Shown here piece after piece: positions 22,418 through 27,590 of a stretch of 27,590 bases of DNA (position 1 is the first letter of the stretch; each line of letters begins with the position of its first letter). The stretch is taken from assembly GCA_001800095.1 (NCBI GenBank), contig MGUT01000037.1, forward strand, positions 1,019-28,608. The letters are read 5' to 3'. The notes under the pieces are model-generated. The model was not told the origin of the DNA, searched no databases, and saw nothing but the letters and a program-made list of their open reading frames with translations. Both the position numbers and the translations under genes were made by a program. Source of the DNA: Elusimicrobia bacterium RIFCSPLOWO2_01_FULL_64_13 (GTDB lineage Bacteria > Elusimicrobiota > Elusimicrobia > 2-02-FULL-39-32).

Positions 22418-23810
22418 CGGATGCGGCTCCTTTTTTCTCCGCGACCTTGTTCAGGGCGCGCATCGCGGGCACATGGTTGGGATCGATCTCGAGGGCCTTC
22501 TGCCATTCCCGGATGGCTTCGACCATCTTCCCCTGGGAATAGGCCACGGTGCCGGACTGATAACGCTCCGAAGCCAGGCGCTTCTGTTCATCGCGGACCT
22601 TGGCCAGCCATTCCCCCGCGGCCGCGTCGCCGGGGGACCGCTCCGCCCGGTTGAGGAAGAATTCCACGGCGGACCGGATATCCCCCCGGTTGAAAGCCGC
22701 GATCCCTTCTTCGTTGGGATCGGACTCCGGCTCCGGGGCGGGAACGGGCGTTTCCTGACCGGCTCCGGGCAGGACCGCCGGCTCCGGTCCCTTGACCGCC
22801 TCCGGTCCCTCAACCACCGCCGGTTCCGGCGGCGCCGCTTGCTCCGGGGCCGGGGCGGCCCCGGGCGCGGGAGGGACGTTCACGCCCTTCTCCCGGATCT
22901 TTTCGACGTAGTCCAGGGCGACCTCGTTCTCGGGATCGATGGAGATGATGCTCTGCCACTCCGCCAGGGACTCCGCGAACCTGCCTTCATTGAAGAGCGA
23001 GAGCCCGCGGTCATAATGCTCGCCGATCCGGCTCTTCCGGTTCTGCCGCTCCAGCATCTCTTCGGCCCGGGTCAGCTCCCGGCGGGATTCCTCATCGGAC
23101 GGGTCGAAATCGAGGATGCTTTTCCAGAGCGAGACGGCCTCCTCATAATTGCCGGCCGCGCTGGCGGCGCGGGCCCGGGTGCGGCCCACGACGAGCACGT
23201 CGTAGCGGCGGCTCTCCCTGAAAAGCTGGTCGGCCCGCTCCGCGTAGATGGAAAGTTTGAAATCGTCCGGACGGAGGGTGAGGGATTCCTTCCATAGGTC
23301 GGCCGCTTCGTCGTAGCGCTTTTCCATGTACAGGAGGAGCCCCTGGTAGGCCTGGCGGGTGCCCGGCGGGGCGGGTGTGACGGACATTTTCCTGGTGAAG
23401 AGCTCGCGCAGTTCCTTTTGGATCTTCAGGGCCTCGAACTCGTTCGGGGCCCTGCCCAGGATCTCGTTCAAGACGTCCATGGCGTCCAGCCATTTTTCCC
23501 TGCGGACGAAGCCCTTGACCTTCTTGAGGTTCTTCTCTTCGCGCTCGGCCATGAGCTTCCTTTCATTTTCAACCTTTTTCTGCGCGTGCTTGAGGCCCTG
23601 CTGGGCGGTCTTGTCCTTCGGGTCGATCTGCAGGACTTTCTGGAAATTCTCGATGGCCCGGTCGAAGTTCTCATCGACGTAGGCCTCGAACGCCTTGTCC
23701 AGAAGCTCATTGACGATCTTCTTGTCCCCCTCGACGGCCCAAACCGGCGCGGGCCGGCACAACAGTCCGGCGCAGACCAGGTACGCCAGCCGGACCCTGG
23801 TCCGGGTCAA
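22407..23810 (-). CDS. Exported tetratricopeptide-repeat protein with a Pro/Ala/Glu linker
   Basis: Probable TTG start at 23810, overlapping the upstream TGA, with GGAG 10 nt upstream; signal peptide ...PVWA|; multiple TPRs (AIENFQKVLQIDP; AVSLWKSILDFDP; AIREWQKALEIDP). Confidence 0.8.
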   Translation of the reverse strand: MTRTRVRLAYLVCAGLLCRPAPVWAVEGDKKIVNELLDKAFEAYVDENFDRAIENFQKVLQIDPKDKTAQQGLKHAQKKVENERKLMAEREEKNLKKVKGFVRREKWLDAMDVLNEILGRAPNEFEALKIQKELRELFTRKMSVTPAPPGTRQAYQGLLLYMEKRYDEAADLWKESLTLRPDDFKLSIYAERADQLFRESRRYDVLVVGRTRARAASAAGNYEEAVSLWKSILDFDPSDEESRRELTRAEEMLERQNRKSRIGEHYDRGLSLFNEGRFAESLAEWQSIISIDPENEVALDYVEKIREKGVNVPPAPGAAPAPEQAAPPEPAVVEGPEAVKGPEPAVLPGAGQETPVPAPEPESDPNEEGIAAFNRGDIRSAVEFFLNRAERSPGDAAAGEWLAKVRDEQKRLASERYQSGTVAYSQGKMVEAIREWQKALEIDPNHVPAMRALNKVAEKKGAASDAP

Positions 23811-24424
23811 GGGCGCAGGCTCCCGAGGGCTTCCTTGACGGCTTTTCGGGGCAGGGCTCCCGCCTGGCCCCTGGCGATGGAGCGCACGAATTTTTCGGAC
23901 CACTCCATCGACGCGGAGCCGCGGATGGGGATCTTGACCTCGCCTTTCCCTTCCACCTCCACGGTCTCGCTCCAGAGGATCCGCCCGGTCTGCGTCAGGA
24001 TGAAAGTGAAATCGGCTTGCAGCGCCTTTCGGGATTCCCCGGGCTGCTGGGAGAATCTGCGCAAGGTGGACTGCACGACCCCGTCGGCCTCAAGGGTCTG
24101 GCCGGCGTACTGGATGTTGCCCTGGGAGAGCTGGGTGCCGTCCGTGATCCCGATCTGCCGGAGGCGGCGGTCGACGTCATTGGAATCGGCGGTGAGCACG
24201 AACCCTTTTCCCGCCAGCCCCCTTTCCAGGAAATAGCGGAGAATGACTCCGGCGCCCACGTCGTTGGTCAGGTTGGCCGTGGGCAGAACGGCGATCCTTC
24301 TGGGGAATCCCCGCTTGCTCTCCCCCTTCCTGCCGAACTTCAGGAGGGCGCAGGAATCCAGGGTCAGGACGCAGGCGGCCAGTCCCAGGTAAAGAACGGC
24401 TTTGGACGATCTATGACCGGACAA
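23807..24424 (-). CDS. Lipoprotein, GNA1162/DUF799-like (CsgG-like fold suspected)
   Basis: TTG start 8 nt after GGAGGAG; candidate lipobox Cys (LAAC or LDSC); RIAVLPTANLT...ADGVVQSTL...GRILWS pattern. Confidence 0.6.
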   Translation of the reverse strand: MSGHRSSKAVLYLGLAACVLTLDSCALLKFGRKGESKRGFPRRIAVLPTANLTNDVGAGVILRYFLERGLAGKGFVLTADSNDVDRRLRQIGITDGTQLSQGNIQYAGQTLEADGVVQSTLRRFSQQPGESRKALQADFTFILTQTGRILWSETVEVEGKGEVKIPIRGSASMEWSEKFVRSIARGQAGALPRKAVKEALGSLRP

Positions 24425-24465
24425 TGCTTCATCTCCTCCGCTCTTCCGATGGAATCAGATAAAAA

Positions 24466-24494
24466 ATTGTAGCAAGTTTGCGTGAAAGAAGCAA
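24466..24494 (-). promoter_or_regulatory. Putative sigma70 promoter of the lipoprotein-TPR-TolC operon
   Basis: Minus strand TTGCTT-N17-TACAAT with extended -10 TG. Confidence 0.6.
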
Positions 24495-24498
24495 AAGC

Positions 24499-24527
24499 TT
24501 GACTTTAGGACAATTGTCCTATAAAAT
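24499..24527 (+). promoter_or_regulatory. lexA promoter with a perfect 16-bp palindrome (candidate LexA operator) in the spacer
   Basis: TTGACT-N17-TAAAAT; the spacer contains TAGGACAATTGTCCTA (24506-24521). Confidence 0.72.
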
Positions 24528-24536
24528 AGAAAAGGC

Positions 24537-25145
24537 ATGAGACCCCTGAAAGAACGCGAAAAGAAGGTCCTGGGAGAGCTGTCCCGCTTTATAAGGGAAA
24601 GGGGCTACGCGCCCTCCCAGAGGGAGCTGGCGAAAATGGTCGGGGTGAAGTCCCCCAACACCATCGATTATTACCTTGAAAAACTCGAAAGCAAGGGCTG
24701 GCTCCGCTGTCATAAGAACCGCTTCCGCGCGGTGGAGCTGGCCGGCTCCGGAACGGGGATCCCCCTTCTCGGCAGCGTGCCGGCGGGCCCTCCGAACCTG
24801 GCCGCGGAGGACCGGGAGGAATGGAGCGGCGTCGACCCCTCCTGGGCGATACCGGGCGGGGCCGGGACCTTCGCCCTGCGGGTGAAGGGAGACAGCATGA
24901 AGGACGCGGGGATATTGGACGGGGACATCGCCGTCGTCCGGGTCCAGGCGACGGCGGAGAACGGCGCGGTCGTCGTGGCCAGGGCCGGGGACGAAACGAC
25001 GGTAAAATTCCTCAAACGCCGGGAAGACGGCGTCTGGCTCGTGCCGGCCAACCCGCGCTACCAGCCGGTCCAGCTCCGCAAGGGAGAGGACGGAGACGGC
25101 GCCGGCATCGCGGGCAGGGTCATCGCGGTCATCCGCAGATTGTAG
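24537..25145 (+). CDS. lexA: SOS repressor LexA
   Basis: N-terminal wHTH (GYAPSQRELAKMVGVKSPNT); Ala-Gly cleavage site (VPAG); catalytic Ser (GDSM) and Lys (TVK). Confidence 0.92.
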   Translation: MRPLKEREKKVLGELSRFIRERGYAPSQRELAKMVGVKSPNTIDYYLEKLESKGWLRCHKNRFRAVELAGSGTGIPLLGSVPAGPPNLAAEDREEWSGVDPSWAIPGGAGTFALRVKGDSMKDAGILDGDIAVVRVQATAENGAVVVARAGDETTVKFLKRREDGVWLVPANPRYQPVQLRKGEDGDGAGIAGRVIAVIRRL

Positions 25146-25160
25146 GAGGGACTTTCCCCC

Positions 25161-25412
25161 GTGAAGATCAGCGAGGTCAACGAAAAAATCAAGGTCGCGG
25201 CCGTCTTCGACGGGGACGGCGTCTTCCCCCGCTGGTTCTTCTGGGGAAAGCGCAAGCGCGCCGTCACCAAGGTGGAGCACGTCTGGCGTTCCCGCGAAGG
25301 GGAGGCCCCTCTCCTCTTTTTCGCGGTGAGCGACGGGTGCAACGTCTACGAGCTCCGCTTGAACCAGAAGACCCTGGAATGGCGGCTGGAGAAGGTCTAT
25401 ATGGAGGGATGA
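25161..25412 (+). CDS. Small beta-rich protein, DUF6504-like (resembles the ImuB C-terminal module)
   Basis: 83 aa; GGAGGA then GTG; pattern P.WFFWGKRKRAVTKVEHVW...FAVSDG.NVYEL......W.LEKV. Family assignment is from memory. Confidence 0.55.
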   Translation: MKISEVNEKIKVAAVFDGDGVFPRWFFWGKRKRAVTKVEHVWRSREGEAPLLFFAVSDGCNVYELRLNQKTLEWRLEKVYMEG

Positions 25413-25421
25413 CGGCGGTTT

Positions 25422-25430
25422 TGGTATAAT
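25422..25430 (+). promoter_or_regulatory. Extended -10 promoter
   Basis: TGgTATAAT, 22 nt before the ATG at 25453; no clear -35. Confidence 0.55.
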
Positions 25431-25452
25431 GGGACCCAAGGAGATTGCGCCT

Positions 25453-25872
25453 ATGGAGAACGAACCGAAGCCCAGGAATATTTTAGTCATAGACGACGAC
25501 CGGGAGACCTGCGCTTTCTTCGAAGGCATCCTCGAACGCCAGGGTTTCAAGGTCGCCGTCGCCTACGACGGCAAAAGCGCCCTGGACCTCCTGGCGGCGG
25601 AAGCCGCGGGCGGCATCGACCTCATCATCCTGGACTTGATGATGCCGGGCTACGGCGGTTACGAGGTCTTGAAGGAACTGAAGCCCACGCGCCACGCCGC
25701 CGTCCCCATCTTCGTCGTGACGGCGCGCGTCCTCGATTCCGGGACCGTCCAGCTCATCCGCGCCGAAGCCAACGTCCGGGAGTTCTGGACCAAACCCGTC
25801 GACATCAAGAAATTCATCGACAAAACCCACGCCCTGTTCGGGACCCAGCCGCCGAAAAAAAAGCAGCCGTAG
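25453..25872 (+). CDS. Single-domain response regulator (CheY-like)
   Basis: ILVIDDD, ILDLMMP, WTKP. AAGGAG Shine-Dalgarno supports 25453; the ATG at 25429 overlaps the -10 element. Confidence 0.88.
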   Translation: MENEPKPRNILVIDDDRETCAFFEGILERQGFKVAVAYDGKSALDLLAAEAAGGIDLIILDLMMPGYGGYEVLKELKPTRHAAVPIFVVTARVLDSGTVQLIRAEANVREFWTKPVDIKKFIDKTHALFGTQPPKKKQP

Positions 25873-25879
25873 GCCGTCC

Positions 25880-26722
25880 ATGATCGATTATCGCTGCCCC
25901 TGCGGGACCCTCTACGAGGTTTCCGACGGGCACGCCGGGCGGGCGGTCGAGTGCTATAAGTGCGGCCGGACGGGCATCGTCTCCCCGCACAAAGTCCTGA
26001 CCCTGGCCGGAGTGGTCCTTTCCGGCGGCCTTCTCTTCATTCTCTTTCCGGTCCTGTCCTTGAGCGCGGGCGCGGCCCTTTCCATGACGATCCCCGGCTA
26101 CGAATATCTGGCGATGATCGGTCTCGGGCTCCTGGGAGCGGCCGGGGCCGTCGTCATCGCGGCATGGACCCGGGCCGCTTTTTCCATAGCCGCGGCCGGA
26201 GACGGCGCTGGATTGAAAAGCGCGTTCTCCCTGGCCCGGCGCGAGACCTCCTCTTTCCTTTGGACCGGGGTCCTGGCGGTCGGGACCGCGGCGGGCGGGG
26301 TCCTGCTCCTCGTCCTCCTGGGCTCCTTTTCGGACCGGGTCAAGGTCAAGTTCTCCGCCGCCCTATCGGACCTGGCGGCCCCGCCGGGTCCCGGAGATTC
26401 GTTCGAGGAGCTCTCCGCCGCGGTCCGGGACCGCGGACGCCCTCCCGAAGAACGCTGGTCCGCCCTGGGGCGCCTGGCCGGTTCGAAGGATCCCGGATTA
26501 TTGGACCTCCTGATCGAGGCCCTGGGATCGGATCCCGACAGCTACTTGAGGGAAAAAGCGGCGGTCCTTTTGGGAGAAACGGGCGACCGGCGCGCGGCCG
26601 GACCTCTGCGGCAAGCCCTCTCCGACGACGCGGTGGTCCTGGGCCCGGGTCCGGACGGCGGGATGACGAAAAAACGGCCGGTGGCGGAAGCGGCCGGATC
26701 GGCCCTCAAGAAGCTCCCTTGA
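25880..26722 (+). CDS. Membrane protein with an N-terminal Zn ribbon and C-terminal HEAT repeats
   Basis: CPCG...CYKCG; three hydrophobic segments; HEAT-like ERWSALGRL...LIEALGSDPDSYLREKAAVLLG...AAGSALKKL. Confidence 0.65.
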   Translation: MIDYRCPCGTLYEVSDGHAGRAVECYKCGRTGIVSPHKVLTLAGVVLSGGLLFILFPVLSLSAGAALSMTIPGYEYLAMIGLGLLGAAGAVVIAAWTRAAFSIAAAGDGAGLKSAFSLARRETSSFLWTGVLAVGTAAGGVLLLVLLGSFSDRVKVKFSAALSDLAAPPGPGDSFEELSAAVRDRGRPPEERWSALGRLAGSKDPGLLDLLIEALGSDPDSYLREKAAVLLGETGDRRAAGPLRQALSDDAVVLGPGPDGGMTKKRPVAEAAGSALKKLP

Positions 26723-26725
26723 CCC

Positions 26726-27253
26726 ATGCAGTCCCGCTGCGCGGTCCAGTTCGGGAACGACCGCAAAAAACTCATCCTGACCGGCCAGGACAACGAGACT
26801 CTTGAACACCTGGCCCTCAAGCTCGCGGGATTCGTTCTCTTCTTCGGCTGGGACCCCGTGGTGGAGATCAGCCCGAAGCATCCGGCCTTGAACGGCCAGG
26901 AATTCAGGCCGGACCTGGCCGCGTTCAATTCCGCCGGGGAGATATTCCTCTGGATCGAATGCGGGAACGTGACCACGCACAAACTCGACAAGATCATCCG
27001 CCGCAACCGCCAGGCCCGCATCGTGGTCCTCAAGGGAACGGAGCGGGAGGCCCATAACCTGCGCCGCGCCCTCGAAAAGAACGAGGTCACGGACGCCGGA
27101 CGCGTGGAGATCCTGGCCTTCCCGGAAGGGCGGATCCGGGAATGGGCGGGCATCCTCGACGATTCCGTCGAGGTCTACGGGGAGGTCTCGGAAAGGAGCT
27201 TCAACCTGGTGGCCAACGCCGTTCCGTTCGACTTCGATCTCATCGCCGTCTGA
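26726..27253 (+). CDS. yaeQ: YaeQ-family protein (PD-(D/E)xK nuclease-like fold)
   Basis: ETLEHLALKLAGF, RPDL, LWIECG and KLDKI match the YaeQ pattern. Confidence 0.78.
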   Translation: MQSRCAVQFGNDRKKLILTGQDNETLEHLALKLAGFVLFFGWDPVVEISPKHPALNGQEFRPDLAAFNSAGEIFLWIECGNVTTHKLDKIIRRNRQARIVVLKGTEREAHNLRRALEKNEVTDAGRVEILAFPEGRIREWAGILDDSVEVYGEVSERSFNLVANAVPFDFDLIAV

Positions 27254-27257
27254 CGCC

Positions 27258-27590
27258 ATGAACCTGAACGAAAGATTTCCCGTGACTCCGGCCAAGGCGG
27301 CGGCCCTCTGCGAGCGCATGCGGCGGCTGGGCGTCCGCGCGGCGGACATCGAAGAGACTTTCACCCGAGGGGGCGGCCGCGGAGGGCAGAAGATCAACAA
27401 GACCTCCAACCGGGTCGTCCTTTCCTATGCCCCCCTGGGGCTCGTGGTCCGGACGCAGAGGGAGAGGCAAAGGTCCCTCAACCGGTTTTTGGCCCTGCGC
27501 GAGCTGGTCGACCGAATCGAGATGCGGACCTCTCCCGGCACCTCCGCCCGCCTGAAGGAAATGGAGCGCGTCCGCAGGCAGAAGGCCCGC
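27258..27590 (+). CDS. Codon-independent peptidyl-tRNA hydrolase / release-factor-like protein (ArfB or mtRF-R type), partial at the window end
   Basis: Not in the ORF track; translated by hand: MNLNERFPVTPAKAAALCERMRRLGVRAADIEETFTRGGGRGGQKINKTSNRVVLSYAPLGLVVRTQRERQRSLNRFLALRELVDRIEMRTSPGTSARLKEMERVRRQKAR. GGQ motif, no codon-recognition domain, basic tail beginning. Confidence 0.85.
   Translation, partial: MNLNERFPVTPAKAAALCERMRRLGVRAADIEETFTRGGGRGGQKINKTSNRVVLSYAPLGLVVRTQRERQRSLNRFLALRELVDRIEMRTSPGTSARLKEMERVRRQKAR

Follow-up and report, generated by a model that had tools for sequence, protein, structure and literature searches.

The question raised by the DNA analyzed here, a 27,590-nt stretch (the window) of contig MGUT01000037.1 from Elusimicrobia bacterium RIFCSPLOWO2_01_FULL_64_13 (G000), is whether a palindrome, TAGGACAATTGTCCTA, that is located just upstream of a lexA gene constitutes the site through which LexA controls its own synthesis. 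A first-pass annotation of the window had proposed that this palindrome is a new SOS box in the classic autorepression position. We addressed this proposal by comparing lexA promoters and LexA proteins among related genomes, by searching the G000 assembly (1.65 Mb, 63% G+C, 83% complete) and those of its relatives for additional sites, and by scanning metagenomes for the same sequence.

A palindrome fills the spacer of the lexA promoter

The perfect 16-bp palindrome occupies 16 of the 17 spacer bases that lie between a TTGACT and a TAAAAT hexamer (Table 1), with a single T at 24505 separating it from TTGACT and with 15 nt separating it from lexA. This promoter matches the consensus at 10 of 12 positions and is the only sigma-70-like promoter that a consensus scan detects in positions 23700-27590. 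Both the sequence and the scan agree in every detail with the palindrome as first annotated, and the autorepression position also holds, given that the palindrome is inside the promoter of what Pfam and NCBIfam identify as a true lexA. Specifically, the encoded protein scores 56.7 bits against PF01726, 94.7 bits against PF00717 and 171.5 bits against the LexA equivalog TIGR00498 (cut-off 110.95), and its full length can be aligned to solved LexA structures, that of E. coli included. In this alignment the Ala-Gly site of self-cleavage is kept (VPAG; VAAG in E. coli), and the dyad residues Ser (GDSMKD; GMSMKD in E. coli) and Lys (TVKFLK; TVKRLK in E. coli) are kept as well. A recA gene is also present in G000.

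Because only 9 nt separate the -10 hexamer from the lexA ATG, the lexA mRNA is probably leaderless or nearly so. A distance of merely 6-9 nt past the -10 hexamer is observed in G000, G005, G009 and G010 (window 24522-24539; L004, L005 and L007 promoters), which suggests a leaderless or near-leaderless lexA mRNA in these genomes. Genus g3, which carries the second operator described below, has a normal AGGAGG leader at lexA.

Table 1. Coordinates of the features discussed in the text. Positions are those of the window unless a locus is named.
Feature	Position	Strand	Evidence and remarks
-35 hexamer TTGACT of the lexA promoter	24499..24504	+	Promoter scan; TTGACA at the same place in 9 relatives
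Candidate LexA operator TAGGACAATTGTCCTA	24506..24521	.	31.1 bits; kept in 10 genomes, flanks not
-10 hexamer TAAAAT	24522..24527	+	Promoter scan and ten-promoter comparison; 9 nt before ATG
lexA, 202 aa	24537..25145	+	Pfam LexA_DNA_bind and Peptidase_S24; NCBIfam TIGR00498
83-aa gene (orf83), probable standalone ImuB-C-like	25161..25412	+	Directly after lexA in relatives; weak DUF6504 similarity
Stand-alone response-regulator receiver gene	25429..25872	+	Domain search; 16 nt from orf83
280-aa protein with Cys-rich N-terminus, hydrophobic segments and HEAT repeats	25880..26722	+	Gap 7 nt
YaeQ-like gene	26726..27253	+	PF07152, 31.5 bits; gap 3 nt
RF-1-domain (GGQ, ArfB-like) gene	27258..27590, continuing 24 nt past the window end	+	Same as L059:1124-1480
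dinB (Pol IV)	Would-be window position 27611 onward, 21 nt beyond the end	+	L059:1477-2385; 4-nt overlap with the ArfB-like gene
Genes of about 82 aa in other loci	L055:1995-2243; L056:2031-2276; L063, L074, L084, L089, L092, L093, L114, L136		Beside lexA
IS91-family transposase (Y2_Tnp and Zn_Tnp_IS91)	L157:9698-11142; L165:2696-4090 (minus strand)		Promoter TTGACAA-TAGGACGTTCGTCCTA-CTATAA

The palindrome is conserved at lexA in the family

A lexA gene was found in 45 of the 60 related genomes that were searched, and reading their promoters revealed TAGGAC-N4-GTCCTA at lexA in nine of the 11 other genomes of the same family, in the same promoter spacer between TTGACA and a TATAAT-like hexamer. 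The motif that had first been read from a single promoter thus recurs at lexA in relatives. With G000 included, the site-bearing genomes amount to ten of the 12 in the family and represent seven genera with LexA proteins that are 45-58% identical, and as related genomes they are non-independent samples. In an alignment of these ten promoters anchored at the operator, conservation in at least seven of the ten genomes is seen at both promoter hexamers and at 14 of the 16 operator columns, but at none of the 38 columns that precede the -35 hexamer. All 12 specified bases are kept across the seven genera, with the neighboring non-promoter bases randomised. Genus g3 additionally has a second operator copy exactly 22 bp downstream, such that its -10 hexamer lies between two operators.

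The Gram-positive type LexA box of Bacillota and Actinomycetota, also called the Cheo box, is GAAC-N4-GTTC. The first-pass description of the Elusimicrobia core as a symmetric one-base variant of this type is borne out, with G in place of A at half-site position 4. Both are inverted repeats with two hexamer-like arms, a 4-nt A/T-rich spacer, an invariant AC-N4-GT core and an overlap with the lexA promoter; they differ at position 4 and in the outer bases, which are TA here instead of CG or TC. Among 26 half-sites from the family, 23 have the variant spelling GGAC in place of the consensus GAAC/GTTC arms, two have GAAC (as TAGAAC) and one has GGAT. The GGAC spelling is not family-wide because G003, which is placed in the same family, has TAGTAC-AAAT-GTACTA as its lexA operator (L140:314-333, G003:C46). 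Its LexA helix region reads KSLNTVRFH as compared to KSPNTIDYH, and G003 is a natural single-position specificity swap. In G004 the search found no lexA ortholog, and the one S24 paralog that was found there (34% identical) has a different palindrome.

Half-site spelling follows the LexA lineage

Other LexA clades of the class have half-sites with GAAC, GTAC, CTAC or ATAC at the same promoter position, and in all of them the AC-N4-GT core is invariant. By family, the arms are TCGAAC in f13 and in a further Elusimicrobia group, CGTAC in f4, CCCTAC in f3, and CATAC and others elsewhere. A maximum-likelihood tree of LexA unites the ten proteins that have GGAC operators in a single clade (support 97/96) whose sister, L018, uses TCGAAC-N4-GTTCGA, and the CTAC users and the GTAC users of f4 each form a clade of their own (support 100/99 each). 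Mapping the half-site labels onto this tree requires 10 changes relative to a mean of 17.4 for shuffled labels, and none of 200 shuffles gave a number as low. Half-sites therefore track the LexA tree, which supports LexA as the protein that binds them. Such agreement between operator spelling and LexA lineage is expected if LexA regulates its own gene, and it would be hard to explain by another regulator.

The recognition-helix region varies together with the arms. It reads KSPNT(I/V)(D/H)Y(H/Y)L in proteins with GGAC arms, SPDT(I/V)QYHL with GAAC, VSVGT(I/V)QDQV with CTAC and SVATVQWHL with GTAC. The first-pass annotation had regarded the helix of the window LexA as unusual. The string KSPNTIDYYL is present as quoted, but it is not very unusual in that it retains the S-P-N of E. 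coli RSPNAAEEHL and is similar to that of its nearest GAAC-type relatives.

The same module is present in metagenomes

The sequence analyzed here belongs to an uncultured groundwater MAG and was found in groundwater metagenomes, all of them DNA metagenomes, with no RNA runs found that carry it. Scanning metagenomes for TTGAC-N2-3-TAGGAC-N4-GTCCTA yielded at least 80 loci. In at least 32 of these (L145-L221; also L275-L280) the site is associated with a 195-aa S24 LexA-like protein that is 28-31% identical to the window LexA and that has a different helix, KSAAEYWIKKL, and an N-terminal domain that Pfam does not recognise. The promoter upstream of this gene reads TCTTGACAA-TAGGAC-N4-GTCCTA-TATAT, and in the loci examined the gene is followed by one coding for a 436-aa Y-family polymerase and preceded by a divergent SRAP gene. 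A search of 300 Elusimicrobiota genomes did not detect the 195-aa protein, and its look-alikes in the atlas are Patescibacteria and Omnitrophota LexA clusters. This suggests that the TAGGAC-N4-GTCCTA spelling arose independently in a second lineage.

At least about 35 further loci among L143-L222 have the module before an IS91-family transposase gene or have a contig end just after the module, and at least four samples contain both the IS91 module and the 195-aa LexA-like gene. The IS91-family transposase may thus be a candidate SOS-controlled transposase. We also raise, as a tentative and rather doubtful proposal, that this LexA specificity arose at least twice, once in the Elusimicrobia family by a G-for-A substitution from a GAAC ancestor (with the TAGTAC operator and SLNTVRFH helix of G003 as a further swap) and once in the unrelated 195-aa lineage whose module also drives an IS91 transposase, with the Elusimicrobia clades constituting an allelic series. 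If this is true, then IS91-family transposition in the second lineage would be inducible by DNA damage, and GAAC, GGAC, GTAC, CTAC and ATAC would be a natural allelic series for reading the LexA helix-to-base code.

LexA as the probable reader of the palindrome

One alternative is that lexA is controlled through this palindrome by a different transcription factor, such as the partner of the receiver protein encoded in the operon or some other dimeric HTH repressor, and that LexA binds elsewhere or nowhere. Such a factor would be compatible with the single site per genome, which provides no regulon link to LexA, and with the same 16-mer design occurring in metagenomes before genes other than lexA, including those of IS91-family transposases. 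With a single site in each genome, it is position and co-variation, and not the content of a regulon, that connect the palindrome to LexA. However, the half-site spelling shifts with the LexA clade, in every case at the lexA promoter and around the LexA-typical AC-N4-GT core, and no other regulator gene is conserved beside lexA in all ten genomes. Furthermore, an unrelated metagenomic lineage has the box before an S24 LexA-like gene that is followed by a Y-family polymerase and has an SRAP gene upstream. We consider control by a different factor to be improbable.

The palindrome is instead very probably the autoregulatory operator of the bacterium's own LexA, as judged from comparative sequence analysis. 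A LexA dimer on TAGGAC-N4-GTCCTA would cover the entire spacer between the -35 and -10 hexamers and would thereby occlude RNA polymerase from the only recognisable promoter of the operon, constituting classical steric repression and negative autoregulation. Damage to the DNA would lead RecA filaments to stimulate the self-cleavage of LexA and so lift the repression of the operon, and the resulting supply of Pol IV and a presumed accessory protein would allow damage-inducible translesion synthesis.

The lexA operon carries a translesion polymerase

The operon that would be under this control comprises lexA, the ImuB-C-like gene, the receiver, HEAT-repeat, YaeQ-like and ArfB-like genes, and dinB. 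Intergenic gaps are 3-16 nt or there is a 4-nt overlap, and co-transcription of the seven genes is predicted, although this 4-kb operon may also contain internal promoters. The polymerase is Pol IV as judged by NCBIfam NF002677 (270 bits relative to a cut-off of 256). In G000, G005, G006, G007, G009 and G010, lexA and dinB share a strand, with dinB downstream, and lexA, orf83 and dinB are adjacent in G005, G007 and G010. Copies of orf83 that follow lexA in relatives are 57-78% identical, and in G008 a homologue of the receiver gene comes after orf83. Control of dinB is not universal, since in genus g3 dinB is located elsewhere in the genome with no detectable site; the constant cargo of the operon is lexA plus the small gene.

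A gene of about 82 aa between lexA and a Y-family polymerase gene was also observed in MAGs from five or more other phyla, with those having the lexA, small gene and Y-family polymerase order labelled as Clostridia, Omnitrophota, Planctomycetales, Spirochaetia and Thermotogae. This gene probably encodes the standalone ImuB-C known from the lexA-imuB-C-polY operons in PMC6511836. The order and sizes of the genes match those of lexA-imuB-C-polY, and the link of orf83 itself is a weak, sub-threshold Pfam match to DUF6504 (E 0.04-0.09).

The YaeQ-like/ArfB-like pair (26726-27590; L059:1124-2385; L058:524-2706; L003:2472-3591) is found together with dinB in G002 and G006 and after lexA in G001. No operator was detected within about 570 bp upstream of the yaeQ-arfB-dinB cluster of G002. 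Because this pair is inside the lexA-dinB operon of G000, a ribosome-rescue-type factor may be damage-inducible together with Pol IV.

The LexA regulon appears limited to little more than the lexA operon

The first-pass annotation had pointed to recA, uvrA, ruvA and dinB as genes that should be searched for the motif. A weight matrix constructed from 13 sites gives the lexA site a score of 31.1 bits, with the runner-up in the 1.65-Mb assembly scoring only 14.2 bits. The 500-nt regions that precede recA, uvrA and ruvA score -7.2, -13.6 and -10.0 bits, respectively, relative to a random-window median of -8.1 bits, so no site is indicated at these genes. dinB has no site of its own but is located in the lexA operon. 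The recA loci of four relatives likewise contain no match with three or fewer mismatches near the gene. Thus the part of the SOS box proposal that stands is a well supported LexA autoregulatory operator; a broad regulon is not observed, and the assembly contains no second strong site. The site is found only at the lexA operon, dinB included, with the proviso that further sites could be missing from an assembly that is 83% complete.

Near-complete relatives present the same picture, with matches having one or no mismatch being the lexA sites plus a few others. As additional regulon members these others were rejected: the matches whose context was read are in coding-like sequence, and neither of the remaining two, G009:C10:321352 and G008:C127:4465, is shared with another genome. 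One of those read, common to G005 and G009, is within a polA-like reading frame and probably owes its retention to the encoded protein. Matches with two mismatches number 15-19 per genome as compared to 63-157 for a reversed-pattern control, indicating no enrichment. Words within two mismatches of the operator are in fact 4-10 times rarer than the reversed control in G002, G005, G007, G009 and G010, and this rarity may reflect either a general avoidance of TAG/CTA or selection against stray LexA sites. Overall, the LexA regulon in this family appears to be little more than the lexA operon, with recA, uvrA and ruvA outside of it.

Other candidate elements at recA were also evaluated. A CGACA-N6-TGTCG box (the WYL-activator box) at recA is unsupported, as the one-mismatch copy that follows the recA -10 hexamer is not conserved in four relatives and does not have the 11-nt geometry reported for this box; the one perfect copy in G000 is in G+C-rich sequence. 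The G000 recA promoter, TTGCAT-17-TAGAAT, is immediately followed by the palindrome GACAG-AAAG-CTGTC (G000:C13:16188-16203, outside the window), which is absent upstream of recA in four relatives.

The first-pass annotation had considered that the same site possibly controls the divergent envelope operon, a lipoprotein-TPR operon; we found no support for this and rejected it. The only readable minus-strand promoter, TTGCTT-17-TACAAT (24494-24466), agrees with the consensus at 8 of 12 positions, too few to pass the threshold of the scan, the operator would be upstream of its -35 hexamer, which is the wrong geometry, and the lipoprotein and TPR genes are beside lexA in no relative.

A second alternative is that LexA does bind the palindrome but does so as a constitutive or differently signaled autoregulator and not as a DNA-damage (SOS) switch. 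LexA proteins of this kind have been reported from some cyanobacteria. The absence of a site at recA, uvrA and ruvA would fit such a role, as would the operon genes that have no obvious repair function (receiver, HEAT-repeat, YaeQ-like and ArfB-like). We judge it very improbable given that the Ala-Gly cleavage site and the Ser/Lys dyad are intact, that recA is present, and that the conserved cargo of an ImuB-C-like gene and Pol IV is a cassette that is damage-induced in Geobacter (PMC6511836). An SOS-responsive LexA autoregulatory operator thus continues to be the preferred reading.

The signal lies in conservation and not in palindromy

The G000 genome contains 102 perfect 16-bp palindromes relative to about 44 expected from composition, and 988 perfect 6-N4-6 inverted repeats relative to about 607 expected. 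A 16-bp palindrome alone consequently means little, and we dropped palindrome rarity as evidence. Loose matches in the window are also at chance level, with six found at three or fewer mismatches versus 6.1 expected from shuffling. The best of the other sites in the window, TTGGACCGGGGTCCTG at 26260, has two mismatches and a G/C spacer, is within the HEAT-repeat gene and scores below 12 bits, and was taken as chance. The signal above chance is instead the sequence-specific conservation at lexA promoters together with the single strong site in the genome. Promoter spacers are normally not conserved in sequence. Chance, or a purely structural spacer feature without a protein partner, which the abundance of palindromes and the chance-level window matches might seem to allow, is an exceedingly improbable explanation given that seven genera share the 12 specified bases amid randomised non-promoter neighbors, that one genus has a second copy 22 bp away, and that the 45-58% LexA identity argues against recent horizontal copies of the ten promoters.

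Two palindromes with A/T-only cores, AATGTATATATACATT (G000:C57:1798-1813) and ATAGTATATATACTAT (1867-1882), were also observed 69 bp apart in this 63% G+C genome outside of the window, and these possibly serve another regulator as paired operators.

Comparison with known LexA systems

The Geobacter sulfurreducens lexA-imuB-C-polY operon is damage-induced and constitutes one transcription unit (Timinskas and Venclovas, PMC6511836). As far as the work of Jara et al. (2003) is related in PMC6511836, the two systems are alike in that an autoregulated lexA heads an operon carrying a small ImuB-C or ImuB-C-like gene and a Y-family polymerase and in that recA is outside of LexA control. The gene order in the portion of that account concerning Geobacter (lexA, a gene of about 82 aa, polY) is identical to that in G005, G007 and G010. 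In contrast, the Geobacter operator, as it is quoted in PMC8565304, is GGTT-N10-AACC, which is entirely different in sequence and length from TAGGAC-N4-GTCCTA, and G000 differs from the Geobacter operon in having four extra genes between the small gene and dinB. Since lexA-imuB-C-polY operons are already published, the circuit described here is a known design with a new operator spelling. It also departs from the core set of SOS genes listed for different phyla in PMC8565304, which includes both lexA and recA, as the regulon here is without recA or uvrA.

Two further lexA-associated motifs bear comparison. In Omnitrophota a lexA-promoter palindrome, CCACAC-N4-GTGTGG (L082, L092, L121, L122, L131 and L132), has the same AC-N4-GT dyad filling the lexA spacer, with a different arm sequence and in another phylum. 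The cyanobacterial LexA box is reportedly RGTAC-N3-DGTWCB. It too is a one-base variant of the GAAC core, with T and not G at position 4, and its GTAC spelling is also found in Elusimicrobia f4 and in G003.

As a separate observation, an E. coli-type box, CTGTATAAATATACAG, is present about 42 nt upstream of lexA in L089 (an Omnitrophota MAG) and L084 (an unclassified MAG), and the helix region of these proteins, KSPNAVTCH, is close to the RSPNAAEEH of E. coli.

Novelty and biological meaning

A full-text literature search found TAGGAC-N4-GTCCTA in no publication, in agreement with the initial impression that the motif is undescribed. The one full text found to mention both 'LexA-binding motif' and 'Elusimicrobia' merely cites an Elusimicrobium genome paper, and no SOS description for the phylum was found in the literature searched. 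LexA is a textbook regulator whose binding motif has drifted widely with its function unchanged (PMC8565304), and a further variant is for that reason expected and not surprising. What is added is an undescribed spelling of an ordinary kind of switch.

One bacterial class in which five or more half-site variants follow the LexA clades provides material for the study of repressor/operator co-evolution. The limited regulon indicates that these bacteria keep only translesion synthesis, and not recA or excision repair, under LexA, which supports the idea that the SOS response has the control of error-prone polymerases as its conserved core. The motif also enables the annotation of SOS genes and SOS-controlled mobile elements in Elusimicrobia MAGs.
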